A stretch of 23,946 nt of DNA, from IMG/VR virus record IMGVR_UViG_2562617151_000005. One strand, given 5' to 3'. Shown one piece after another: positions 1 through 23,946 of the stretch. Every line of letters starts with the position of its first letter. Position 1 is the stretch's first letter. A program made the position numbers and the translations under genes. The notes beneath the pieces are model-generated. The model worked only from the letters and a program-made list of their open reading frames with translations, was not told the origin of the DNA and did not search any database. Origin of the DNA: a virus (Duplodnaviria > Heunggongvirae > Uroviricota > Caudoviricetes).

Positions 1-1131
1 TCAAATGACCAGTTTTTTCCACTCCTTACCGCGTACATCGTTGTAAATATCGGTCATTTTTTGATTCGAATGGCCTAGCAAAATTTTGGTATCAACCCCC
101 TGCTCTCTGAACAATCGCTCTGATAAAGATCTCTGCTCATGGAAAGAGGGTGGGGTGCCATTAGCACGCCAGTTGTAATCCACAGAATCCCGGGCTTTTT
201 TAAATGCAACGGTTAATGTTGCTGGCTTAACCATCCCGCCGCGCTTAGCTGTCCCTTTCGCGTGATGGTGGTGCAATAGCCACGGACTAAGAACGCAATC
301 GCGGCAGGATGACACTACATCATCCAGGGTGAGATTTAATTTATCGCAACGCAGAGCCAGAGGGATGGCAATCCGGGTTCCTGTTTTTTGCTGTTCGACA
401 TGAAGATAACCATCCCGGATATCCGAAAATTGCATTTTGCAAATATCTGAAAGGCGCTGGCCTGTCATCAGTGCCAGCAGCATACCGCGCTGTAAAAAGT
501 AACCATTCTTTTCCGCTGCGTTATAAATCATCATCCACTCATCAAAAGTCAGTCGCTGTCTTGATATCCGCACCTGCGGTTTTTTTGCCGATTCTGCAGG
601 GTTAAAGCCTGGCGGGACATCGCCCGTTTGCTGAGCTTCCCGGAAAACATCGATCAGTACTTTCCTGAAAATTTGTCCCATTCTGTTATGTCCTCTGGCC
701 TTGTACTCTTCCAGTACTGATACCACATCTTTTACGGTTATGGCATCTAACGGTCTGGTGCCAAAACGTTCATCAAATACCCTGAGAGGGGCCGCTTTCT
801 GTTTCAGCGTGTTGAGTTTGATCTCGCCGTTTTCATATCTTTCCTGTTGAATTTTTCTGTAATTATTCAGAAAAATGGTAACGGTTGATGAACCGCCGGT
901 ATCACTAATAATTTTCTCCTGCAGACTGAGCATTTGTTCCATTTGCTGCCGGGCAAGACGGCTGTTCGCTTCTGCTGCAATAGTTTCTGCCAGTTTCTGG
1001 TCAATACTGCCGAGACCGTGATTTTTGCCTGTTATGGGATGCCTGTAACGCCAGTAAACTTTGTTATTTCTTTTGTCAAAATACGGAGATAATCCCGGAA
1101 CATCGGTTTTATATTTTCGCGGGCGCGCCAT
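1..1131 (-). CDS. int: Tyrosine-recombinase phage integrase (lambda Int family); complete, stop at 1-3
   Basis: 376-aa ORF in track; C-terminal half carries the R...HxxR...Y catalytic layout typical of lambda-type integrases; immediately downstream of an overlapping Xis-like gene, the usual xis-int arrangement. Confidence 0.9.
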   Translation of the reverse strand: MARPRKYKTDVPGLSPYFDKRNNKVYWRYRHPITGKNHGLGSIDQKLAETIAAEANSRLARQQMEQMLSLQEKIISDTGGSSTVTIFLNNYRKIQQERYENGEIKLNTLKQKAAPLRVFDERFGTRPLDAITVKDVVSVLEEYKARGHNRMGQIFRKVLIDVFREAQQTGDVPPGFNPAESAKKPQVRISRQRLTFDEWMMIYNAAEKNGYFLQRGMLLALMTGQRLSDICKMQFSDIRDGYLHVEQQKTGTRIAIPLALRCDKLNLTLDDVVSSCRDCVLSPWLLHHHHAKGTAKRGGMVKPATLTVAFKKARDSVDYNWRANGTPPSFHEQRSLSERLFREQGVDTKILLGHSNQKMTDIYNDVRGKEWKKLVI

Positions 1132-1357
1132 CTTCCAGTATCCTCTTCAAAGCAGGGTGATCTGTGGCGATCACCTCCGGCTTGTTTACCATTCCGACAA
1201 AGCGAGCTTGCGGATCCACTCGCCAGCGTCTTCCAACTTTTTTGGGGAGAGGAAATATCATTCCGGCTTTAGCGTATTTACTTAACGTACTCGGAGTAGG
1301 GACCGGTTCACTGAATTCCTCTTTTGCCCACTCAGTGAGCAGAATAAGTCTTGCCAT
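1109..1357 (-). CDS. xis: Excisionase (lambda Xis-like)
   Basis: 82-aa ORF; segment IFPLPKKVGRRWRV resembles lambda Xis IFPPPVKDGREYLF by eye; 3' end overlaps int start by 23 nt. Confidence 0.8.
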   Translation of the reverse strand: MARLILLTEWAKEEFSEPVPTPSTLSKYAKAGMIFPLPKKVGRRWRVDPQARFVGMVNKPEVIATDHPALKRILEDGAPAKI

Positions 1358-7207: not shown

Positions 7208-8182
7208 GTGTTCGGGGGTTTTATGAGCAGCAAGCTTCATGGTCTTGTCTGGGAAGGGTGCGCCTTCACCGGCATGATCTTATCCAGGGTGGCGGTTATG
7301 GCCCGTCTTGCAGACTACAGCAATGACGAGGGCGTGTCATGGCCTGCCATTGAAACTATCCGGCGTCAGATCGGTGCAAGAAGTGAATCCACAGTGAAAT
7401 CGGCTATTGCAGAACTGGCGAAAGAGGGCTGGCTGACGAAGGAAGAGCGTAAGGTCGGTGGGCGTAATGTAAGCAATATCTATCGGCTTAATGTGGAAAA
7501 ACTCGAAGCAGCTGCGGCGGCGCGTGAGTCATATAAACCGAAAAGAAAAATTAGCCCGGCAAAAAATGACCCGTTAACAGTTGACCCGTCAAATATTGCC
7601 CCCTCAACGGTTGACCCGTCAAATTTTGATGGATCAACTGTTGATAAAAAACTGCCGATTAGGGGGCCGATGATTGACCCCGATCCGTCAGTATTAAAAC
7701 CTGATCCGTCAGATAAAAGATCTTCTTGTCCGGACGCTTCGCAACCGGACCCGCAGACGGCTGAACAGGATTTTTTAACCCGACACCCTGACGCGGTTGT
7801 GTTCAGTGCGAAAAAACGCCAGTGGGGAAGTCAGGAAGATTTGGTGTGCGCACAGTGGATCTGGGGACGAATCGTGAGTCTTTACGAGCAGGCGGCCAGC
7901 TATGATGGCGAGATCACTAGACCGAAAGAACCCAACTGGACAGCATGGGCCAATGACGTTCGCACAATGCGGATGCTGGATGGCAGAACTCACAGACAAA
8001 TTTGTGAAATGTTTGGGCGTCTCCAGCGGGATTCGTTCTGGGTAAAAAACATCATGAGTCCGGCAAAACTCCGGGAAAAATGGGATGAACTGGTTATCCG
8101 CCTGGGGCGTTCGCCTGCGCAGCGTTGCGTGAATCACATTTCTGAACCGGACACTGAAATTCCGCCGGGCTTCAGGGGGTAA
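7208..8182 (+). CDS. Replication initiation protein (lambda O-like; N-terminal winged-helix, internal iteron-encoded repeat)
   Basis: 324 aa; N-terminal HTH-like region; peptide repeat TVDPSN encoded by DNA iterons; position after cro/cII-like genes. Confidence 0.7.
   Translation: MFGGFMSSKLHGLVWEGCAFTGMILSRVAVMARLADYSNDEGVSWPAIETIRRQIGARSESTVKSAIAELAKEGWLTKEERKVGGRNVSNIYRLNVEKLEAAAAARESYKPKRKISPAKNDPLTVDPSNIAPSTVDPSNFDGSTVDKKLPIRGPMIDPDPSVLKPDPSDKRSSCPDASQPDPQTAEQDFLTRHPDAVVFSAKKRQWGSQEDLVCAQWIWGRIVSLYEQAASYDGEITRPKEPNWTAWANDVRTMRMLDGRTHRQICEMFGRLQRDSFWVKNIMSPAKLREKWDELVIRLGRSPAQRCVNHISEPDTEIPPGFRG
7567..7714. repeat. Iteron cluster, candidate replication origin inside the O-like gene
   Basis: TGACCCGTCAAAT perfect at 7582-7594 and 7612-7624 (30-bp spacing), degenerate copies at 7567-7579, 7675-7691 and 7702-7714, with an A-rich stretch between; analogous to lambda ori inside O. 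Confidence 0.55.
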
Positions 8183-8326
8183 GTGTTAATTTCTGGTCAT
8201 GAGGTAATTTTCAGGAGGGCTTGTGGCAAAAGTTTTTACACAAGAAGAGCGGGAAAAAATTAAAGGGCAGGTTGTTGAACTCGTACGCCAGAGTGGGCGC
8301 GAGACGTTACGACAACTGGAAACTAA

Positions 8327-9522
<1,196 letters not shown>

Positions 9523-10036
9523 CTAATACTGGGGCAACAAGATATCTGATGAGCGTTCTGGCCAGAGAGCTGGTTGCCAGTGGCGATGTATACAACTCTG
9601 GTTACGGGTTATTCCCGTCTGAACAGGCGCGTAAGGACTGGCAAAATGCCCGTAAAAAGCTCTCAAGGGCAAAGCTGAAGAAACCATCTGCGGTTGATCC
9701 GGACCTTATCTGGTCATTACCTGACGGAGAAATACGTCGCTACGACAGGCGTCAGAACATAATCTGTCGCGAGTGCCGGAAGAGTGAAGTTATGCAGCGC
9801 ATATTGTCGTTTTATCAGGGTGATGTTCGGTATTTATTGAAGTGACGAGATTAAAGTGCATTAGTTCAGATGCAAATTGACATTTTGTGGCACAGGGTAG
9901 AGCTAGCGTGGTTGTCCGCTTTGTGCCAATAGCGGACATTGCTGGCTCATGGTATGTTAGTTTAAGGAGGCAGGTTATGCCCTGTATTTCGCTGTGGTAT
10001 AATAGTTGCGCAATTGATACAAGGGAGCGTTACATC

Positions 10037-10999
10037 GTGAAAATTGTTTTCGAGGTTAATGGAAAGAAAGTTCCACTAAAATCTTTAAAATACATAAGCA
10101 AAAAAGATCAACTCGAAGTAATGAAAAACTGGTTCTTTGAAAACTTTGAAGATCCGGCAAATGCTTGTCCGTATGAAAGTAGAGAAGGTGGCTATGCTTA
10201 CATATATGGCGGGCCGTATGATGCGAGCGAAGAACTACAATCCATCTTCGGTCAATATGTTAAATCTGAGTATATTGAGGAATTAGTAGATGAATTACAA
10301 ACACAATGTTTTGACTGGTCTGGAAACTCAAATAATATAGATGATTGGTACGATGATGATATCTACGACGCTGTAACGTCTTCCGGTAATCCGTATTTAA
10401 AATTCATTGATAATATCGATAAAATAAAAAAACTTGCAAAAGATAAAACTGAACAACAGCAAAAAAACCACTTGCTTAGTTTGCTCTACACGAATGTTAT
10501 TACAGCTTTGGAAACGCTTTATGTTGAGCTATTCATTAATTCTATAGAGAAAGATGATGTCTACATAGCCAATTGTATAGAAAAAGGTAAGACTGAATTT
10601 AAAGTAAGCAAAGATATTGCTGCGTTGCCTTTCAAGGGTGAACCCATCGAGAAAATTAGGGGAGAGCTAATCAGGTCAATCAAGGAACACTTGATCAGTG
10701 CAAGCTGGCATAGCACTAAAAAGGTAATCGACCGCTATGAAGCTACATTCGATATAAAAGTACAAAAAGACTGTCCGATAGAAGCTATTGAATTGGCAAC
10801 CCTCAATCGAAATCACTTAGTGCATCGTGGTGGAAAGGATAAAGAAGGGAACCTCGTAGTGATTACAGACCAGGATCTTGAAACGCTGATTGAAAATGCA
10901 TCGAACCTGGCAATTATGCTCTACAACAGTTTAAATGTAGCAACGAATAAAACCACCATTTTGCAACCAGATGACAAACCGTTCATTCATGAATTTTAA
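10037..10999 (+). CDS. Hypothetical protein A of AT-rich cassette (about 320 aa) with C-terminal HEPN-like Rx4H motif
   Basis: Long ORF; proposed GTG start at 10037 preceded by AGGGA; TTGACA at 9878-9883 upstream; motif LNRNHLVHRGG near C-terminus; markedly AT-rich by eye. Confidence 0.6.
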   Translation: MKIVFEVNGKKVPLKSLKYISKKDQLEVMKNWFFENFEDPANACPYESREGGYAYIYGGPYDASEELQSIFGQYVKSEYIEELVDELQTQCFDWSGNSNNIDDWYDDDIYDAVTSSGNPYLKFIDNIDKIKKLAKDKTEQQQKNHLLSLLYTNVITALETLYVELFINSIEKDDVYIANCIEKGKTEFKVSKDIAALPFKGEPIEKIRGELIRSIKEHLISASWHSTKKVIDRYEATFDIKVQKDCPIEAIELATLNRNHLVHRGGKDKEGNLVVITDQDLETLIENASNLAIMLYNSLNVATNKTTILQPDDKPFIHEF

Positions 11000-11014
11000 T
11001 AGCGCAGGTCATAC

Positions 11015-12016
11015 ATGGATATTCGCACACGAAAGACAAAATTTTTAGAGTCGTTAGATTCAACTGAAGTGATACGCAAAGCAGTAAGTCTCGCTATAGA
11101 TTGCATTATTGATAATCATAATAGTAATGAAGATACCCCCTTAGTTATTACCAGCTATGATGATCTCTGTAGAATCCAGGTGCTAAATTATGTACAGGAG
11201 TTTTGCGAAGCTGCATTCCCTGATATGGATGAATATTACTTTAGTCCTAACATACTTCGCATCAACGGCAAGACTAGTGAAGAAGCTTGTATTAACTTAA
11301 TTAAACTCTTAAGAAGTACAAAAGGCATGCTATTCTGGTCCGATGCCCCATCGTGGTTCGCTAGCCTCCCCGACGGATTATTCCATGTTGTTAACATTGA
11401 TCAAAAAATCGTTACTCGCGGCCTTAATAAGAAAAACTCTAAGCCGACAATAATCAATAAAGATTACAGTGTAGATACACTACTATCAGAGCTATTTTTG
11501 AATGGCGCACACATGGAGCAACCCAACGTACACAACGTTTCTGAGGGAAACATGAAGTTCTATGATGAATGCCATGCTGGATTAATCAGACCAATACCCG
11601 CTCCAATAGGCGCGTCATACGATGAAGAGATCACAATTAATTCTCCAGATTGGCAAAAGCTCGCGTGTGTAGCTTTACGCCGCTATCAGTCGAAGGAATG
11701 TCATGACGGAATGCAATGGGATACAACCGATCATGGTTGGACTGATGTAATCGCGTATCCATTCGTCGAAGAAATACAATCAATGGATAATAGTGGTTAT
11801 CGACAATGTTTAGTTGGGCTGGTCACAATAAACAATTCAAATGCAAATTCTCCGTACCTATCTACCGTTTGGATACATCTATTTTATCGCAGGAGAGGGT
11901 TATTAAGTAAGTTATGGCCAAAATTACAAGAGTTATATGGAAGTAACTTCGAAATTGAGCGACCTAATGAAAATATGAAAGCATTTCTGAAAAGTGCGAA
12001 ACACGCAGATTACTAA
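11015..12016 (+). CDS. Hypothetical protein B of AT-rich cassette (333 aa)
   Basis: ORF 15 nt downstream of gene A on the same strand; AT-rich; no Walker A or other recognisable motif. Confidence 0.6.
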   Translation: MDIRTRKTKFLESLDSTEVIRKAVSLAIDCIIDNHNSNEDTPLVITSYDDLCRIQVLNYVQEFCEAAFPDMDEYYFSPNILRINGKTSEEACINLIKLLRSTKGMLFWSDAPSWFASLPDGLFHVVNIDQKIVTRGLNKKNSKPTIINKDYSVDTLLSELFLNGAHMEQPNVHNVSEGNMKFYDECHAGLIRPIPAPIGASYDEEITINSPDWQKLACVALRRYQSKECHDGMQWDTTDHGWTDVIAYPFVEEIQSMDNSGYRQCLVGLVTINNSNANSPYLSTVWIHLFYRRRGLLSKLWPKLQELYGSNFEIERPNENMKAFLKSAKHADY

Positions 12017-17163: not shown

Positions 17164-17239
17164 GGCCCTTTAGCTCAGTGGTGAGAGCGAGCGACTCATA
17201 ATCGCCAGGTCGCTGGTTCAAATCCAGCAAGGGCCACCA
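17164..17239 (+). tRNA. tRNA with CAU anticodon, Ile2-like (ileX/ileZ type) rather than Met
   Basis: Hand-folded cloverleaf: acceptor GGCCCTT/AAGGGCC, D-stem GCTC/GAGC, anticodon loop CTCATAA, T-loop TTCAAAT, encoded CCA; resembles E. coli ileX from memory. Confidence 0.8.
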
Positions 17240-17246
17240 TCACATA

Positions 17247-17323
17247 CCGCCATTAGCTCATCAGGAAAGAGCGCCAGCCTTCGAAGCTGGTTGCGCGGAG
17301 TTCGGGTCCCCGAAGGCGGTCCA
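17247..17323 (+). tRNA. tRNA-Arg (UCG) with atypical T-arm
   Basis: Hand-fold: acceptor CCGCCAT/AAGGCGG (one A-A mismatch), D-stem GCTC/GAGC, anticodon stem CCAGC/GCTGG, loop CTTCGAA, T-loop TTCGGGT with one T-stem mismatch, encoded CCA. Confidence 0.55.
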
Positions 17324-17336
17324 TTATCTGTATCCT

Positions 17337-17413
17337 GCGTTGTTAGCTCAGCCGGACAGAGCAATTGCCTTCTAAGCAATCGGTCACTGGTTCGAATCCA
17401 GTACAACGCGCCA
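17337..17413 (+). tRNA. tRNA-Arg (UCU)
   Basis: Acceptor GCGTTGT/ACAACGC, D-stem GCTC/GAGC, anticodon loop CTTCTAA, T-loop TTCGAAT, encoded CCA. Confidence 0.85.
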
Positions 17414-18388: not shown

Positions 18389-19423
18389 ATGGCATTTAAA
18401 CACTATGACGTGGTCAGGGCGGCATCGCCGTCAGACCTTGCGAAACGACTGACACAAAAACTGAAGGAGGGCTGGCAGCCGTTTGGTAGTCCGGTGGCCA
18501 TAACCCCTTATACCCTGATGCAGGCGATTGCAGCAGAAGGTGATGTGGTCGTCAGTGGTGCAACTGAGCCGGAGTGGTACTACGTCATCGTACTGGCCGG
18601 GCAATCCAATGCCATGGCTTACGGTGAAGGGCTTCCGCTTCCGGATTCATACGATGCGCCCCATCCGCGCATTAAGCAACTGGCCCGTCGTAACACAGTG
18701 ACTCCCGGTGGTGAAGTATGCGTATTTAACGACATCATTCCTGCTGACCATTGTCTGCATGATGTTCAGGATATGAGTACGATTAACCATCCCCGGGCTG
18801 ACCTGAGCAAAGGGCAGTACGGCTGTGTCGGACAGGGCTTACATATTGCCAAAAAACTGCTTCCGTATATCCCTAATAATGCGGGGATCCTGCTGGTACC
18901 ATGCTGTCGTGGTGGTTCGGCATTCACCCAGGGCACGGAGGGGACATTCAGCGAGTCCACGGGAGCCAGTCAGGATTCGGCTCGCTGGGGAGTGGGTAAG
19001 CCGTTATATCAGGATCTGCTTTTCCGCACGAAGGCAGCATTGCAGAAAAACCCGAAAAACGTTTTGCTGGCGATATGCTGGATGCAGGGGGAATTCGATA
19101 TGACGAATGCCAGTTACGCCCAGCAGCCAGCAGCATTTCTTGCAATGGTACAGCAGTTCCGTGCTGACCTTGCCGGGCTGGCAGCGCAGTGTCACGGTGG
19201 AAGTCCGGCATCAGTCCCCTGGATTTGTGGCGACACGACATACGCGTGGAAACAAGAACACGGTACGCAATATGAAGTGGTATATGGTGCATATAAAGGT
19301 AAAGAATCCCAGCAGATTTATTTTGTTCCCTTTATGACCGATGGTAGCGGAGTTAATACACCGACAAACAACCCGTCAGAAGATCCTGATACCTGCAGGA
19401 GTACATCAGGACGCAGTGCTTAA
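18389..19423 (+). CDS. nanS: NanS-like 9-O-acetyl sialate esterase (SGNH hydrolase) of the prophage nanS-p type
   Basis: 344 aa; SD GGGAGG upstream; GQSN motif (VLAGQSNAMAYGEG) typical of SGNH/SASA esterases; N-terminus MAFKHYDVVRAASP... resembles YjhS/NanS from memory. Confidence 0.75.
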   Translation: MAFKHYDVVRAASPSDLAKRLTQKLKEGWQPFGSPVAITPYTLMQAIAAEGDVVVSGATEPEWYYVIVLAGQSNAMAYGEGLPLPDSYDAPHPRIKQLARRNTVTPGGEVCVFNDIIPADHCLHDVQDMSTINHPRADLSKGQYGCVGQGLHIAKKLLPYIPNNAGILLVPCCRGGSAFTQGTEGTFSESTGASQDSARWGVGKPLYQDLLFRTKAALQKNPKNVLLAICWMQGEFDMTNASYAQQPAAFLAMVQQFRADLAGLAAQCHGGSPASVPWICGDTTYAWKQEHGTQYEVVYGAYKGKESQQIYFVPFMTDGSGVNTPTNNPSEDPDTCRSTSGRSA

Positions 19424-19844: not shown

Positions 19845-20465
19845 ATGAAAGATCAAGATGTTAGGTTCGCGGTGCATCATAAGCTTTTGAAAGAATCGCA
19901 TTTAGATCCAGACTGCCTTGTGGTCGATGAATTTTCCATATCCCTTGGCGCCAGTAGAGCAGACATTGCTGTAATAAATGGTGTTATACACGGGTACGAG
20001 CTCAAAAGTGAATATGACTCTTTGGAGCGTTTGCCTCTTCAAATCAAGCATTATTCTTCTGTAATGGACAAGGTTACTCTTGTCGTAGCTGAGAAACATC
20101 TTGAGGGAGCATTAAAGTTAATCCCAGGTTGGTGGGGCGTTAAAACGGTTTCTGTTGGGCCAAAAGGCGCCATTCTTATAAAGCACATGCGTGGAGAAAA
20201 GCTTAATCGAAACCATGACACATTGATGCTCGCTCAATTGCTTTGGAAAGATGAATGTATCGACGTACTTGAACGATGGGGCTATTCCAAAGGAATCAAA
20301 AGCAAGCCCCGATTTGAGTTATGGAATATTATTGCGGAAAATATTCCAATAGCGAATCTCAGGCTTGAAGTCAGAACAGCCTTAAAGAAACGCGTAGGCT
20401 GGAAAGTTAAGGCTTGGCAGGCTGAGTCTGCGCCAACCAATAAAGCTGTCTCACGACTAACGTAA
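19845..20465 (+). CDS. Hypothetical protein (206 aa) with PD-(D/E)xK nuclease-like motif
   Basis: SD AAGGAG and TATAAT-like -10 upstream; motif ...RADIAVINGVIHGYELKSE... with D-x11-ELK spacing typical of restriction-endonuclease-fold enzymes; AT-rich. Confidence 0.6.
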   Translation: MKDQDVRFAVHHKLLKESHLDPDCLVVDEFSISLGASRADIAVINGVIHGYELKSEYDSLERLPLQIKHYSSVMDKVTLVVAEKHLEGALKLIPGWWGVKTVSVGPKGAILIKHMRGEKLNRNHDTLMLAQLLWKDECIDVLERWGYSKGIKSKPRFELWNIIAENIPIANLRLEVRTALKKRVGWKVKAWQAESAPTNKAVSRLT

Positions 20466-21474
20466 TATGGTGCGTATGTGCAACTTTACGCCATTCTTTA
20501 GAGCCGCCAGATTTGTTAGCGCCTAATGATCTTTGGTAAATGTAATCATCCCCCCAACTAAATTTGGAACCAAAGACTTGATACTCTGGCGAACTAACAA
20601 GGGTAGTACATAAGTTTTTAGTTTGGCCCCATCCATTTCCTTTAACTGCGGTACCTTTTACAAAGATCCATGAGGTATCGTTCGAATATCTCACTGAGAC
20701 ATACTGAGACATGAAGCGTGGGTCTACGCTCGTAATGGTAGAGCTAGCGGTGGGATAATCACTAAAACTTGGCGTTCTTCCATTGCTAAAATTCTGTACT
20801 ACGTACATCCAAAGATCGTATTCATGGCGCGGAATATGATGAACTTGATGTTGCGGTATCCCTGCCTGTGATGCTGGGTATGCGGTTGAAGATAAAATCA
20901 AGTTTCTCCACGGAGCTTGGCCTGATAATGTGTTGACCATGCTTAATGCTTGTTGTTTTAAACTATCAGTTGCGTTTTGAATATCTCCAAAATCAATGAT
21001 TACATCAATTAAACTAGGATGAATATTTAAGTGGTTAACCAGACTTGTGAATTGGTGCCATGTCTGGGGGGTGATAGATATAGCGAGCCCATTGATTAAG
21101 TTGCGTTGAACAGCATGTATATAGTTTGTTGAATATGCGGGAGAAACAACAGGGATAATTTCCTTACCATTTACTCTAGCATCTTGGATACACATATCTA
21201 GAGGATGATGGCGGCTCGAACCATGTTTATCTAAATATTTAACATCCAGCAAAACAGGACGATTGGCTTTCCAGGATGCCGCAAGGTTAATACCGAAGTC
21301 AGATAAGTAAGAACTCAAACTCTTCTTGTAGCATTCGTTTTCATAATCCCAGTCTATGTCTGGAATGGTAATGATCGGAGTAAAACCAGAGAGCGTAGTT
21401 TGATCTAAAAGCATCAGAGATTCATATTCAGCAGGCTTCCATTTCAGCTGTGGATAATATTGATGTTGACTCAT
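20407..21474 (-). CDS. Hypothetical protein (355 aa), convergent partner of the nuclease-like gene
   Basis: Long AT-rich ORF; 3' end overlaps 19845-20465 by 59 nt on the opposite strand; no family recognised. Confidence 0.6.
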   Translation of the reverse strand: MSQHQYYPQLKWKPAEYESLMLLDQTTLSGFTPIITIPDIDWDYENECYKKSLSSYLSDFGINLAASWKANRPVLLDVKYLDKHGSSRHHPLDMCIQDARVNGKEIIPVVSPAYSTNYIHAVQRNLINGLAISITPQTWHQFTSLVNHLNIHPSLIDVIIDFGDIQNATDSLKQQALSMVNTLSGQAPWRNLILSSTAYPASQAGIPQHQVHHIPRHEYDLWMYVVQNFSNGRTPSFSDYPTASSTITSVDPRFMSQYVSVRYSNDTSWIFVKGTAVKGNGWGQTKNLCTTLVSSPEYQVFGSKFSWGDDYIYQRSLGANKSGGSKEWRKVAHTHHITLVVRQLYWLAQTQPAKP

Positions 21475-21697
21475 TAAAACTCCTTAAAATCTTTACTTAT
21501 CCTAAGTATAGTGTTATGGCGTAACGCCAATTGTTTTTATACACTTGAAAACATTGGGAAAAGTTGAGCTATATCTAAATTTACAAAATTGGATGTTATA
21601 GAAATCGAGGTTTCAACTAGGCATGGAACTGCAAAATTTTTAATGCCTGCACGCGAAAGTCGTTGGCGGGTCCTTTCCGGTGATCCAGACCGTTACG

Positions 21698-21709
21698 GGG
21701 CGGCGACCT
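21698..21709 (+). other. cosN, lambda-type 12-nt cohesive end GGGCGGCGACCT with flanking cos sequence
   Basis: CGTTACG|GGGCGGCGACCT|CGCGG followed by TTTTTCACTATTTATGAAAATTTTT, near-identical to the lambda genome left end as I recall it; about 180 bp upstream of Nu1. Confidence 0.7.
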
Positions 21710-21885
21710 CGCGGTTTTTCACTATTTATGAAAATTTTTCAGGGAAAATCGTGTCGGTACTTCTCGAATATAACTTTTTGTTTTTTTTAATATTACATCC
21801 GTAAAGGTCCGACATGAAAGTGTCCGAAAATGCCTTTTTCTGGCGTTTTCATGTCGGGCCTTGTATTTGATAATGGGTTGTTTTC

Positions 21886-22434
21886 ATGAAGGTTAATAAA
21901 AAGAGGCTTGCCGAAATTTTCAACGTGGACCCGCGGACGATTGAACGCTGGCAGTCTCAGGGACTCCCTTGCGCCTCCAAAGGTAGTAAGGGCATTGAAT
22001 CTGTATTTGATACTGCCATGGCAATTCAGTGGTATGCGCAGAGGGAAACTGATATCGAAAACGAAAAGCTCCGCAAAGAACTGGACGATTTGCGTGCGGC
22101 AGCGGAGTCAGATTTACAACCCGGCACCATTGACTATGAACGCTACCGGCTCACAAAAGCGCAGGCAGATGCGCAGGAACTGAAAAATGCCCGTGAAGAC
22201 GGAGTAGTGCTGGAAACTGAACTGTTTACCTTCATTCTGCAACGTGTGGCACAGGAGATTTCGGGGATACTTGTGCGTGTGCCGTTGACATTACAGCGTA
22301 AATATCCGGACATTTCACCATCACACCTTGATGTGGTGAAAACTGAAATCGCGAAAGCCTCCAATGTTGCAGCTAAGGCCGGTGAAAACGTGGGCGGGTG
22401 GATCGATGATTTCAGACGCGCAGAAGGCAGCTAA
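21886..22434 (+). CDS. nu1: Terminase small subunit (lambda Nu1-like)
   Basis: 182 aa [28 protein letters not shown]...[47 protein letters not shown], closely parallel to lambda Nu1. Confidence 0.85.
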
Positions 22435-23179
22435 TGCAGCCGGTGCGATAGCTACAGGGCTTTTATCTCTCATTATTCCTGTTCCACTGACGACAGTTCA
22501 GTGGGCCAATAAACATTATTACCTTCCTAAAGAGTCGTCTTATACCCCCGGGCGGTGGGAAACACTGCCGTTTCAGGTTGGCATCATGAACTGTATGGGC
22601 AACGATCTGATTCGCACGGTTATGCGTGGCTGGACGATTAAGGGCAAGCCCGCCAGTGGTCGGGCCGTATTATCTCAGGAACAGGACGGCATTAAATCGC
22701 ACACCCACAGCGCCAGCGCATCCAGTACGGATTTGGGGACGAAAACCACATCGTCGTTTGATTACGGAACCAAATCCACGAATAACACCGGGGCGCATAC
22801 CCATAGTATTAGCGGGACCGCAAATAGTGCCGGTGCGCACCAACACAAGAGTTCCGGTGCATTTGGTGGCACGAACACGAGCATTTTCCCTAATGGTTAT
22901 ACCGCGATTTCAAATCTAAGCGCGGGGATTATGAGCACAACAAGCGGTAGTGGCCAGACTCGTAATGCAGGGAAGACATCATCAGATGGTGCTCATACCC
23001 ACTCGCTGTCCGGCACTGCTGCAAGCGCAGGCGCACATGCACATACTGTCGGTATTGGTGCTCATACGCACTCCGTTGCGATTGGTTCACATGGACACAC
23101 CATCACCGTTAACGCTGCTGGTAACGCGGAAAACACCGTCAAAAACATCGCATTTAACTATATTGTGAGGCTTGCATAA
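22406..23179 (+). pseudogene. Chimeric ORF: terminase large subunit (gpA-like) N-terminal 70-odd aa fused to a side-tail-fibre C-terminal His-rich repeat region
   Basis: From MISDAQ the N-terminus matches lambda gpA ([41 protein letters not shown]) up to about nt 22620, then switches to GAHTHS/GAHQH repeats; same frame throughout; start overlaps Nu1 end as in lambda. Confidence 0.6.
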
Positions 23180-23763
23180 TGGCATTCAGAATGAGTGAAC
23201 AACCACGGACCATAAAAATTTATAATCTGCTGGCCGGAACTAATGAATTTATTGGTGAAGGTGATGCATATATTCCGCCTCATACAGGTCTGCCAGCAAA
23301 CAGTACCGATATTGCACCACCAGATATTCCTGCTGGCTTTGTGGCTGTTTTCAACAGTGATGAGGCATCGTGGCATCTCGTTGAAGACCATCGGGGTAAA
23401 ACGGTTTATGACGTAGCGTCAGGGGACGAGTTATTTATTTCTGAACTCGGTCCGTTACCGGAAAATGTTACCTGGTTATCGCCGGAAGGGGAGTTTCAGA
23501 AGTGGAACGGCACAGCCTGGGTGAAGGATACGGAAGCAGAAAAACTGTTCCGGATCCGGGAGGCGGAAGAAACAAAAAACAACCTGATGCAGGTAGCCAG
23601 TGAGCATATTGCGCCGCTTCAGGATGCTGCAGATCTGGAAATTGCAACGGAGGAAGAAACCTCATTGCTGGAAGCCTGGAAAAAGTATCGGGTGTTGCTG
23701 AACCGTGTTGATACATCAACTGCACCTGATATTGAGTGGCCTACGAACCCTGTCAGGGAGTAA
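23179..23763 (+). CDS. tfa: Tail fibre assembly protein (Tfa)
   Basis: 194 aa [39 protein letters not shown]... recognised as the lambdoid Tfa family; TAATG overlap with upstream stop. Confidence 0.8.
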
Positions 23764-23817
23764 TCATTGGGATTATGCCGCAGCACGTCTTAAGCAAGAA
23801 CGTGCTGCGGTTGGATG

Positions 23818-23946
23818 CTATTTTTTCCCTGAAGCGGAAAACATTACTACAGTACCTTGAACCTTGGTTTTAACATTCTCGAAATGCTCTGAGAGTATAT
23901 GTGTTAAGCCTTCTTCGGAATCTTTTGTGTTTGAAAAGATGCCTTT
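23818..23946 (-). CDS. Possible 3' end of a minus-strand gene running off the window edge
   Basis: Open frame on minus strand from the window end to TAG at 23820-23818 (...HFENVKTKVQGTVVMFSASGKK*); 11-bp inverted repeat at 23778-23810 follows; only 42 codons visible. Confidence 0.25.
   Translation of the reverse strand, partial: KGIFSNTKDSEEGLTHILSEHFENVKTKVQGTVVMFSASGKK

Follow-up and report, generated by a model that had tools for sequence, protein, structure and literature searches.

A terminase–tail fibre fusion at the packaging-site end of a decaying lambdoid prophage in Escherichia sp. 4_1_40B

The stretch of DNA analysed here (IMG/VR record IMGVR_UViG_2562617151_000005, 23,946 nucleotides; the window) comes from a gut Escherichia strain, Escherichia sp. 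4_1_40B, and carries a lambdoid prophage located between ompW and yciE. This study concerns positions 21480–23179, which begin just past the divergent start of a Beta_protein gene (20407–21474, minus strand) and contain, in this order, a cos site, a small-terminase gene and a chimeric open reading frame (ORF), the stop of which is overlapped by the tail fibre assembly gene tfa. We consider it very probable that the locus belongs to a lambdoid prophage in decay and forms its packaging-site end; the prophage is carried by 4_1_40B and a few near-identical strains and has undergone a 22-kb deletion and a later deletion of its lysis genes. The element as such represents ordinary prophage decay and is a rare and recent instance of a well-known kind of remnant. 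The features at this end of the prophage are the following.

21668–21674, plus strand: cosQ (GGGTCCT), identical to the annotation of phage 21 (OL657228), with an unchanged spacing to cosN
21698–21709, plus strand: cosN with the 12-nt cohesive end GGGCGGCGACCT, identical to bases 1–12 of phage 21 and lambda
21747–21863, plus strand: cosB of phage 21 type, every subsite identical to the phage 21 annotation, with R3 at 21747–21762, the integration host factor (IHF) site I1 at 21771–21783, R2 at 21804–21819 (inverted) and R1 at 21847–21863
21886–22434, plus strand: small terminase (TerS; gene 1 of phage 21, Nu1 family), 182 aa, Pfam PF07471 Phage_Nu1 at 1.9e-81
22406–22621, plus strand: first 72 codons of the large terminase (TerL; gene 2 of phage 21), 72/72 identical to gp2 of phage 21 and to TerL of the Escherichia coli HH35 prophage
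22621–22622, plus strand: deletion junction J1, with a TA common to both parents, placed by comparison of parent and window sequences
22622–23179, plus strand: last 185 codons of the side tail fibre gene (stf), in frame with the terminase fragment
23179–23763, plus strand: tfa, 194 aa, intact, Pfam Caudo_TAP at 1.9e-44

The cos site, the small terminase and the chimeric frame

The complete cos site spans 21668–21863, and its cohesive end is present once in the window. An earlier note, made from the sequence alone, described cosN and its flanks as lambda-like, and this holds for cosN and cosQ. The R sites of cosB, however, are of phage 21 type: the series R3-I1-R2-R1 agrees with OL657228 both in sequence and in offset from cosN, whereas the lambda sequence at the same offsets differs. 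Taken together, cosQ, cosN and cosB make up a lambda-like cos site of predicted phage 21 specificity. The 925 nt up to the junction contain three mismatches to phage 21, and the ribosome-binding site is also identical to the feature annotated in that phage. Likewise, the Nu1 gene that had been called intact is indeed full-length, with the PF07471 match covering profile positions 1–163 of 164, from the N-terminal wHTH to the TerL-binding C-terminal end, but it is not of the lambda Nu1 type; its product is identical to gp1 of phage 21 at 182 of 182 positions and only 53% identical to lambda Nu1. Judged by these sequence comparisons, cosB and both terminase pieces are those of phage 21, not of lambda. 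A scan of 21400–23946 for promoters and terminators gave promoter matches at background level only.

The chimeric ORF (22406–23179, 257 aa) starts at ATG 22406, before the end of gene 1, so that the two overlap in the manner of genes 1 and 2 of phage 21; an ATG at 22364, given in a mechanical ORF list, lies upstream in the same frame. Its terminase part amounts to residues 1–72 of 642 and thus leaves out the ATPase motor, the endonuclease and the portal-binding C terminus of a large terminase; a Pfam scan of the ORF gave no terminase match. The TerS-binding domain of TerL has been placed at the N terminus (PMC9026076), and by this placement the chimera retains the part of TerL that holds the TerS-binding region. 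The fibre part opens at the collar motif (D)MRGW, continues with His-box repeats (Pfam Phage_fiber) and ends with the C-terminal tip. Residues 73–257 are 99.5% identical to residues 136–320 of StfQ in K-12, and the stf-derived DNA is 100% identical over 668 bp to the Qin prophage of strain S3.

The same division is seen in the PHROG profiles, which split exactly at residues 72/73, with terminase-large profiles matching residues 1–72 and tail-fibre profiles residues 73–257 (PHROG 295 at 1e-90). What remains is a Stf C-terminal part followed by tfa, that is, the last 185 of about 1,025–1,035 residues, and the N-terminal tail-attachment part is gone. The Tfa protein is 99% identical to that of HH35 and 97% identical to TfaQ; NCBIfam gave no match for either the fusion ORF or tfa. 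The earlier note had described an ORF that follows gpA for about 70 residues and switches in frame, at about nt 22620, to His-rich tail-fibre C-terminal repeats followed by tfa. This description proved accurate, with 72 residues, a switch at 22621/22622 and gp2 of phage 21 as the terminase, followed by Phage_fiber repeats, the Stf tip and an intact tfa.

In public databases, the exact 257-aa protein is listed as “large terminase [Escherichia sp. 4_1_40B]” (EIG71195.1 and identical entries), and the 90% cluster of this entry otherwise consists of TerL N-terminal fragments of 37–73 aa from contig ends. The name is misleading; the predicted product is a fusion of 72 TerL residues to a fibre tip, and our analysis corrects the public annotation.

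Most likely, the chimeric ORF is a by-product of the deletion, a “deletion-born fusion,” rather than a selected gene. We take this as the default reading because chance alone would put one joint in three in frame, the sister joints do not keep the frame and the carriers are clonal. A contrasting hypothesis is that the chimera and Tfa have been co-opted for defence, with the fibre tip masking a receptor or the N-terminal domain of TerL titrating the TerS of incoming phage-21-type phages. In the in-frame fusion, the end of TerL that binds TerS is indeed retained along with the complete receptor-binding tip and its chaperone, a defence-like gene pair is located immediately upstream, and a chimeric Stf from a cryptic prophage (StfE2) has been reported to block T2 adsorption (PMC12529663). 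Yet the corresponding joints in the B-1109, S3 and L034 prophages are out of frame, the clonal carriers give no signal of purifying selection, the chimera has no export signal, and the gene is part of a late operon that is silent in a repressed prophage. We therefore regard a role in defence as very unlikely.

Deletions in the prophage and its closest relatives

An intact relative, the prophage of E. coli HH35, occupies the same site between ompW and yciE. Its left part holds int, xis, the immunity and replication genes, Q, a DNA methyltransferase gene, tRNA genes, nanS, and the genes for holin, YdfR, lysozyme and Rz; in the middle are the sce7726/Beta-protein pair, cos, TerS and TerL, followed by W through lom; and the right end consists of a 1,035-aa stf, tfa, an S-adenosylmethionine (SAM) methyltransferase gene, fibre remnants and an ompW' attR fragment. 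Compared with this prophage, the left parent of the window stops at TerL codon 72 (...CACGGTTA/ACCTG, the slash marking the break) and the right parent begins 185 codons before the stf stop (...CCCTGATA/TGCGTGG), with approximately 22.0 kb between them, and the window reads ...CACGGTTATGCGTGG. In shorter form, the right parent ...CCTGATA/TGCG gives ...CACGGTTATGCG in the window. The missing block comprises 20 genes, namely W, portal, protease, D, E, FI, FII, Z, U, V, G, T, H, M, L, K, I, J and lom (as listed), together with most of TerL and stf.

A tblastn search with every HH35 prophage protein against the window found all 20 genes from W to lom absent. This agrees with the earlier note, according to which the prophage is structurally defective, has suffered a large deletion and lacks all head and tail-shaft genes. 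The integrase, the excisionase, the genes in the repressor and cro positions, the O-like gene, RusA, Q and the methyltransferase are intact in the same comparison. Furthermore, a megablast search against phage records split cleanly at query position 1142/1143, which corresponds to 22621/22622 in the window; the left part matched cos, gene 1 and the start of gene 2 of phage 21 at 99.7%, and the right part the 3' ends of side tail fibre genes and tfa at 96–98%. The closest relatives among complete genomes match the window only up to position 22622. A search for the exact breakpoint and for microhomology, as had been suggested, thus gives an in-frame joint at 22621/22622 at which the parents share nothing but TA.

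A single intraprophage deletion of about 22 kb thus joined TerL codon 72 to the last 185 codons of stf, with only TA in common and in frame by chance. It took away the greater part of TerL, every head and tail-shaft gene, lom and the N-terminal 80% of stf. The deletion at J1 was not driven by homology.

The window contains a second deletion junction, and the left prophage end is also preserved.

1–1357, minus strand: integrase (1–1131) and excisionase (1112–1357), intact, at the left prophage end beside ompW
18389–19423, plus strand: truncated SASA/NanS esterase ORF made by J2, with Pfam DUF1737 and a partial SASA domain
19390–19391, plus strand: deletion junction J2 (TA), at which codon ~334 of the nanS-type esterase gene is joined to the 3' end of Rz

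The deletion at J2 removed 2,867 bp and with it the genes for holin, YdfR, lysozyme and Rz; here too, the parents share TA only. The truncated esterase keeps residues 1–338 of the 617-aa protein in HH35. The earlier note had seen no lysis genes anywhere in the window, and tblastn found none, but their loss is due to this separate event at 19390/19391 and not to the terminase/fibre deletion. Three contigs (L007, L009 and L010) carry the fusion with the lysis cassette still in place and flanks that are 100% identical, whereas four others (L006, L008, L011 and L012) have both deletions. Since the fusion occurs together with the lysis cassette in the first group, the morphogenesis genes were lost first and the lysis genes later in one near-clonal lineage. 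A later, independent deletion of 2,867 bp thus stripped the lysis cassette from a sub-lineage that includes the window, with the insertion of an IS5-family element and the absence of a DnaC-like loader gene as further damage. The locus thereby yields a dated two-step decay series within one clone.

The insertion sequence (IS) just mentioned (8327–9522) is 92% identical to the IS5 of K-12, is flanked by a 4-bp CTAA target duplication and is located inside a DUF977 gene. At positions 8181–8213 of the window, compared with 20203–21749 of contig L001, the gene for a DnaC-like ATP-binding protein and a DUF1627 gene, which follow the O-like gene in HH35, are absent and 33 unmatched bases are found instead.

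A look-up of the exact protein identified the fusion on nine contigs, which were read, and seven distinct places were fetched. The carriers include five NCBI assemblies and two ENA gut metagenomes, with versions both with and without the lysis cassette, and the exact integrase protein of the window adjoins ompW in every place fetched. The joint was found in none of 5,426 complete E. coli genomes. A scan for the exact 51-nt junction in one genome per species (GTDB representatives) gave no match and is uninformative, since the source strain is not a representative. The source scaffold (GCA_000158415.2, 2.7 Mb) shows 100% identity to the window across 11,541 bp and continues after tfa with a tfa remnant, a small ORF, yciE, yciF, yciG, trpA and trpB, that is, with attR remnants and then the chromosome. 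Intact morphogenesis and lysis genes beyond the window, which by the earlier note would have spoken against a defective prophage, were looked for in this scaffold and the yciE–trp genes were found in their place.

The end of the window at 23946 (position 11541 of L006) coincides with a scaffold gap of 100 N inside a ybcY-like SAM methyltransferase gene, where approximately 478 bp are missing in comparison with HH35, and we estimate the length of the remnant to about 25.6 kb. Because of this gap, and because the source is an older draft assembly, we also considered the possibility that the joint is an artefact of assembly or scaffolding. However, the gap lies 770 bp past the fusion, both of its sides are collinear with HH35, and the identical 257-aa protein with its flanks is present in the nine contigs read, with independent assemblies in agreement. 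The exact fusion in independent assemblies and in two gut metagenomes rules out a misassembly, and an artefact has next to no probability.

Some observations nevertheless weigh against the simple derivation of the window from an HH35-like prophage by deletion. HH35 is not the direct ancestor, and its stf allele differs mid-way in the retained part; the figure of 22.0 kb is therefore an estimate with HH35 as a model. The closest stf allele (99.6%) is found in another prophage at the ompW site (NZ_CM136154.1), one with head genes of HK97 type. The absence of the loader gene may reflect either a deletion or a mosaic difference. Finally, all carriers are 99.9–100% identical to each other, so selection on the fusion cannot be judged.

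The prophage in NZ_CM136154.1 (L018) has an integrase of the same family and a terminase and head genes of HK97/P27 type that replace those of phage 21 type, and its gene content thus indicates mosaicism of head modules at the ompW attachment site.

We nonetheless favour the hypothesis of a decaying prophage. Integration at an att site, a phage integrase (99.2% identical to that of HH35, with an excisionase that is 100% identical) and collinearity with an intact lambdoid prophage are all seen, as is a terminase region that abuts stf and tfa with the morphogenesis genes gone, which is the pattern of a cryptic prophage.

The prophage also carries genes that are unrelated to the deletions. A convergent gene pair (19845–21474) is located between the former position of Rz and cos. 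One of the genes codes for an sce7726/P4-cII-like protein (PADLOC “cll” at 4e-31) and the other for Beta_protein (PADLOC PD-Lambda-2_C at 4e-32 and “beta” at 3.5e-10). By these profile matches, the pair looks like a two-gene relative of the gop-beta-cII and PD-Lambda-2 defence systems, without an obvious third gene, and the intact HH35 prophage and B-1109 carry this pair as well. Two large ORFs at 9887–12016 take the place of queH in HH35; their products of 370 aa (with a weak N-terminal HEPN/RES match) and 333 aa (no Pfam match) match PHROGs of unknown function at e-240 and have no PADLOC match. We regard both as cargo. Three prophage tRNA genes are located downstream of the methyltransferase gene (17164–17413), one with a CAT anticodon (Met according to ARAGORN, Ile in RefSeq relatives) and the other two being Arg-TCG and Arg-TCT.

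Recurrent TA endpoints in lambdoid prophage remnants

A TA is common to every joint that was first examined: J1, J2, the joint in the B-1109 remnant of the same ompW prophage family, that in Qin of S3 (where it lies inside an imperfect 8-mer), an extra 234-bp deletion in Qin of K-12, and DLP12 (as TAT). In TOK-001, codon 78 of lambda Nu1 is joined to exactly the stf position that is used in B-1109, and in XJ34, a remnant at another locus with a TerS of 85% identity, the break is at TerS codon 140, as in B-1109. The stf positions are given below as codons before the stop.

Targeted scans of IMG/VR, in which the right-hand sequence had to be preceded by a non-native base, showed that the endpoints are reused. 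The stf -404 site (GGTCGGG/TA/CCTTCTGCC; site B) is joined to at least 10 different partners, which include Nu1, gpA codon 347, tail gene K/L, the early region, intergenic DNA and two positions within stf itself. The site used in the window, stf -185 (CCCTGA/TA/TGCGTGG), is reused to the nucleotide with at least four other partners, and thus has at least five, one of them in an inversion: lambda gpA codon 102, which is the left endpoint in DLP12, an inverted gpA segment, bor–ybcV intergenic DNA and one more. Four different right partners were identified for TerS codon 140, whereas the scan for a second partner of the left endpoint in the window gave none. The inverted segment is seen in two IMG/VR loci (L047 and L048), where stf -185 is joined to a lambda-type gpA segment with TA shared, so the same sites also take part in inversions.

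Targeted scans detect joints at the queried TA only, which limits the support that they lend to a process centred on TA. An unbiased sample of 120 IMG/VR loci, all of which hold a conserved 40-mer from the end of stf and the start of tfa, was therefore drawn. Among the 31 distinct non-native left boundaries in this sample, nine begin exactly with TA, as compared to a background of 5.0% (binomial P = 1.4e-5), and 13 have a TA at offset 0 or 1 (binomial P = 3.6e-6), while about 40% of the boundaries are without TA. Of the 86 TA dinucleotides from site B to the stf stop, a few gather the endpoints; no foreign partner was found for a control TA situated 45 nt downstream of the stf -185 site in sequence that is just as well conserved. 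Partners with CA in place of TA give products with one or the other of the two dinucleotides, the outcome that a staggered exchange of 2 bp would predict.

Approximately half of the 120 loci (sample L051–L165) have a truncated stf frame, and remnants with a fibre tip and tfa are thus very common in E. coli prophage fragments.

The TA breakpoint pattern is a solid observation. That the TA on the stf side is reused to the base by unrelated remnants suggests a process that prefers certain sites, and not a random break. One hypothesis, which concerns the origin of the deletions only, is that the joints are due to an enzyme-like activity with site preference and a TA crossover of 2 bp, similar to that of a serine recombinase or a transposase with a TA target, acting on preferred sites and quasi-sites, and not to random illegitimate recombination or slippage. 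The shared TA at every joint examined in detail, the base-precise reuse of endpoints, the excess of TA in the unbiased sample, the small number of TAs used within sequences conserved on both sides, the unused control TA and the CA/TA products all fit such a process. On the other hand, the pattern was recognised post hoc, a substantial fraction of the unbiased boundaries is without TA, the left endpoint in the window has the single partner seen here, and searches gave neither a candidate enzyme nor an extended motif beyond TA. We therefore hold to this hypothesis only tentatively, as one that has considerably less than an even chance of being correct.

Some of the endpoint reuse is explained by nested secondary deletions, for example from a joint of gpA codon 347 to stf -404 toward those in C21-2, S3 and K-12 Qin, and from L045 to L049. 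Such deletions do not account for the reuse that spans unrelated terminase types and loci.

Several other explanations for the hot spots were considered. Mosaic boundaries were rejected as a cause, since 20 nt on either side are conserved in the full-length genes. A quasi-site for an invertase of the Pin/Cin type was also rejected; the published crossover repeat of e14 (TTGGTTTGGGAGAAGG) is mismatched and of opposite strand sense, and the crossover would lie 14 bp from the TA. As for adjacent deletions mediated by IS elements, no IS or IS end is present at any junction, and the YTAR target of IS5 fits one endpoint only. Terminal inverted repeats in the deleted block and a half-site motif among the endpoints amounted to weak similarities by eye. 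The left halves of sites B and C were found with foreign right partners in one and zero true cases, respectively, and the 15-nt pattern for site B also gave approximately 29 chance matches. Nothing relevant to deletion endpoints centred on TA in E. coli prophages turned up in the literature searched.

In its most explicit form, the hypothesis states that an undescribed site-preferring recombination with a 2-bp TA (occasionally CA) crossover repeatedly cuts E. coli lambdoid prophages at particular positions, takes out the morphogenesis block and leaves cos and TerS beside the fibre tip and Tfa; the terminase/fibre joint would then be one outcome of this process and no accident. The positions would be TerS codon 140, gpA codons 57, 81, 102 and 347, and stf codons -404, -320, -185 and -123. 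We find this doubtful. If it were true, a programme or an enzyme would be partly responsible for the decay into remnants like Qin and DLP12, and laboratory experiments could reproduce that decay. If reusable TA-centred endpoints are confirmed at scale, the recurrent terminase-to-tail-fibre architecture would come from a specific molecular process and not from chance and selection alone. The practical value of the locus is modest, and specialist interest is limited to the evidence for preferred TA cut positions, to which the remnant in the window contributes.

Residual functions and comparison with known elements

With the genes for TerL, portal, capsid, tail and lysis gone, we infer that the element would be unable to cut its own cos, to package DNA, to build particles or to lyse the cell. 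Excision is possible, and so is cleavage of cos by a co-resident or superinfecting terminase of phage 21 type, because the integrase, the excisionase, the immunity region, Q, cos and TerS all look intact. A helper could plausibly cut the site, since cos and TerS are sequence-identical to those of a working phage and terminases of phage 21 type are common, with full-length versions in 856 of the 5,426 complete E. coli genomes. In O157, the terminase of a neighbour packages defective prophages whose cos matches (PMC2669165). The locus thus identifies a chromosomal phage-21 cos and TerS that are open to the action of a helper.

It could be argued from these same observations, that is, the identity of cos and gp1 to those of phage 21, the intact int and xis, the many genomes with a full-length terminase and the precedent for helper packaging of defective lambdoid prophages, that the remnant is a functional satellite-like element, which keeps cos, TerS, int/xis and the fibre-tip genes for packaging and transfer by a phage-21-type helper. 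Lambdoid headful packaging requires roughly 75–105% of the genome length, and the remnant, at about 25.6 kb, is far below this. Its gene content is collinear with a full prophage minus the deletions, a replication gene is seemingly missing, the lysis genes are gone and its distribution is rare and clonal. Together with collinearity, the Pfam, PHROG and PADLOC scans show ordinary prophage genes only. Phage-inducible chromosomal islands (PICIs) are much smaller and have replication and interference genes of their own. Hallmarks of satellites such as rpp, redirection of capsid size and an own primase (PMC9026076) are absent. A satellite lifestyle is thus improbable, because the element is far shorter than a headful and has no satellite-specific genes.

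The cos-type PICIs resemble the remnant in being chromosomal elements with a cosQ/cosN that depends on the terminase and capsids of a helper, but they are without helper-type cosB and TerS, and their Rpp protein retargets the TerS of the helper (PMC9026076). The remnant, in contrast, has cosB and TerS of the helper type and no Rpp, replication or interference genes of its own. Deletion-born fusion genes provide another comparison: a deletion fuses fragments of two distant genes, and the new ORF spreads with the deletion (PMC12803068). That work does not treat prophage terminase/fibre fusions, and an adaptive value is not shown here.

Among intact phages, the closest counterpart is the cos-1-2 region of phage 21, to which cosQ, cosN, R3-I1-R2-R1, gp1 and residues 1–72 of gp2 are identical or nearly so. 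The difference is that gp2 in the window ends after codon 72 and has no ATPase, nuclease or portal-binding part.

Among remnants, the earlier note pointed to a likeness to the nohA-stfQ arrangement of Qin in K-12. This holds for the architecture, with nohA directly before stfQ-tfaQ in K-12, but not for the fusion itself, since K-12 StfQ has no terminase residues. The Qin prophage (nohA-stfQ-tfaQ-pinQ) shares with the window a gene of the Nu1 family and a cos site next to the 3' part of stf, an intact tfa and the deletion of head and tail genes, and the retained stf and tfa DNA is 98–100% identical to that of the window. Closer analogues than Qin of K-12 are found in S3, where gpA codons 1–81 are joined to stf, and in C21-2, where gpA residues 1–347 are fused in frame to Stf in a protein of 601 aa that is also annotated as a large terminase. 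Unlike the window, Qin has a terminase of lambda type (53% protein identity to the phage 21 type), with gpA codon 347, gpA codon 81 or Nu1 codon 176 joined to stf -404, -254 or -320; it resides at another chromosomal site, has kept its lysis genes and contains pinQ.

At least four forms of Qin were seen, and they are compatible with a series of nested erosion steps (L023, S3; L027, C21-2; L038, L041 and L044; L004, K-12). In this series, a founder with gpA codon 347 joined to stf -404 is followed by C21-2 (gpA codon 347 to stf -254, via the 8-bp repeat GGGATACG), then S3 (gpA codon 81 to stf -320) and then K-12 (Nu1 codon 176 to stf -320).

Such remnants are far more common than the joint in the window. 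A composite probe of lambda cos-Nu1 and of the end of stf with tfa, the two parts being within ~1.2 kb of each other, identified a lambda-type Nu1 near stf/tfa in 469 of the 5,426 complete genomes (Qin-like and DLP12-like remnants pooled), as compared to none with the window joint. The corresponding probe of phage 21 type identified three genomes, B-1109 and two XJ strains.

In DLP12 (nohD-aaaD-tfaD-ybcY), a cos site and an intact Nu1 homologue are likewise followed by an N-terminal fragment of TerL (aaaD, 103 codons of a lambda-type gpA) that is joined to DNA of the tail-fibre region, with a shared TAT at the joint and the same SAM methyltransferase gene downstream. DLP12 differs in its lambda type, in having the right endpoint in tfa and not in stf, and in the retention of its lysis genes. 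Both the nu1 and the cos of DLP12 work in lambda, and recombination with an incoming phage is stimulated by cos (PMC3945230). The B-1109 remnant belongs to the same ompW prophage family as the window, with the same flanking genes, a deleted morphogenesis block of 21.7 kb and TA at the joint, but TerS codon 140 is joined out of frame to stf -404 and the lysis genes are kept.

Analogous deletions have occurred independently in B-1109, XJ34, TOK-001, the Qin variants and DLP12. The window, the Qin variants and DLP12 represent independent events because their breakpoints all differ, and the chimeric joint in 4_1_40B is an independent further instance of the Qin/DLP12 architecture.

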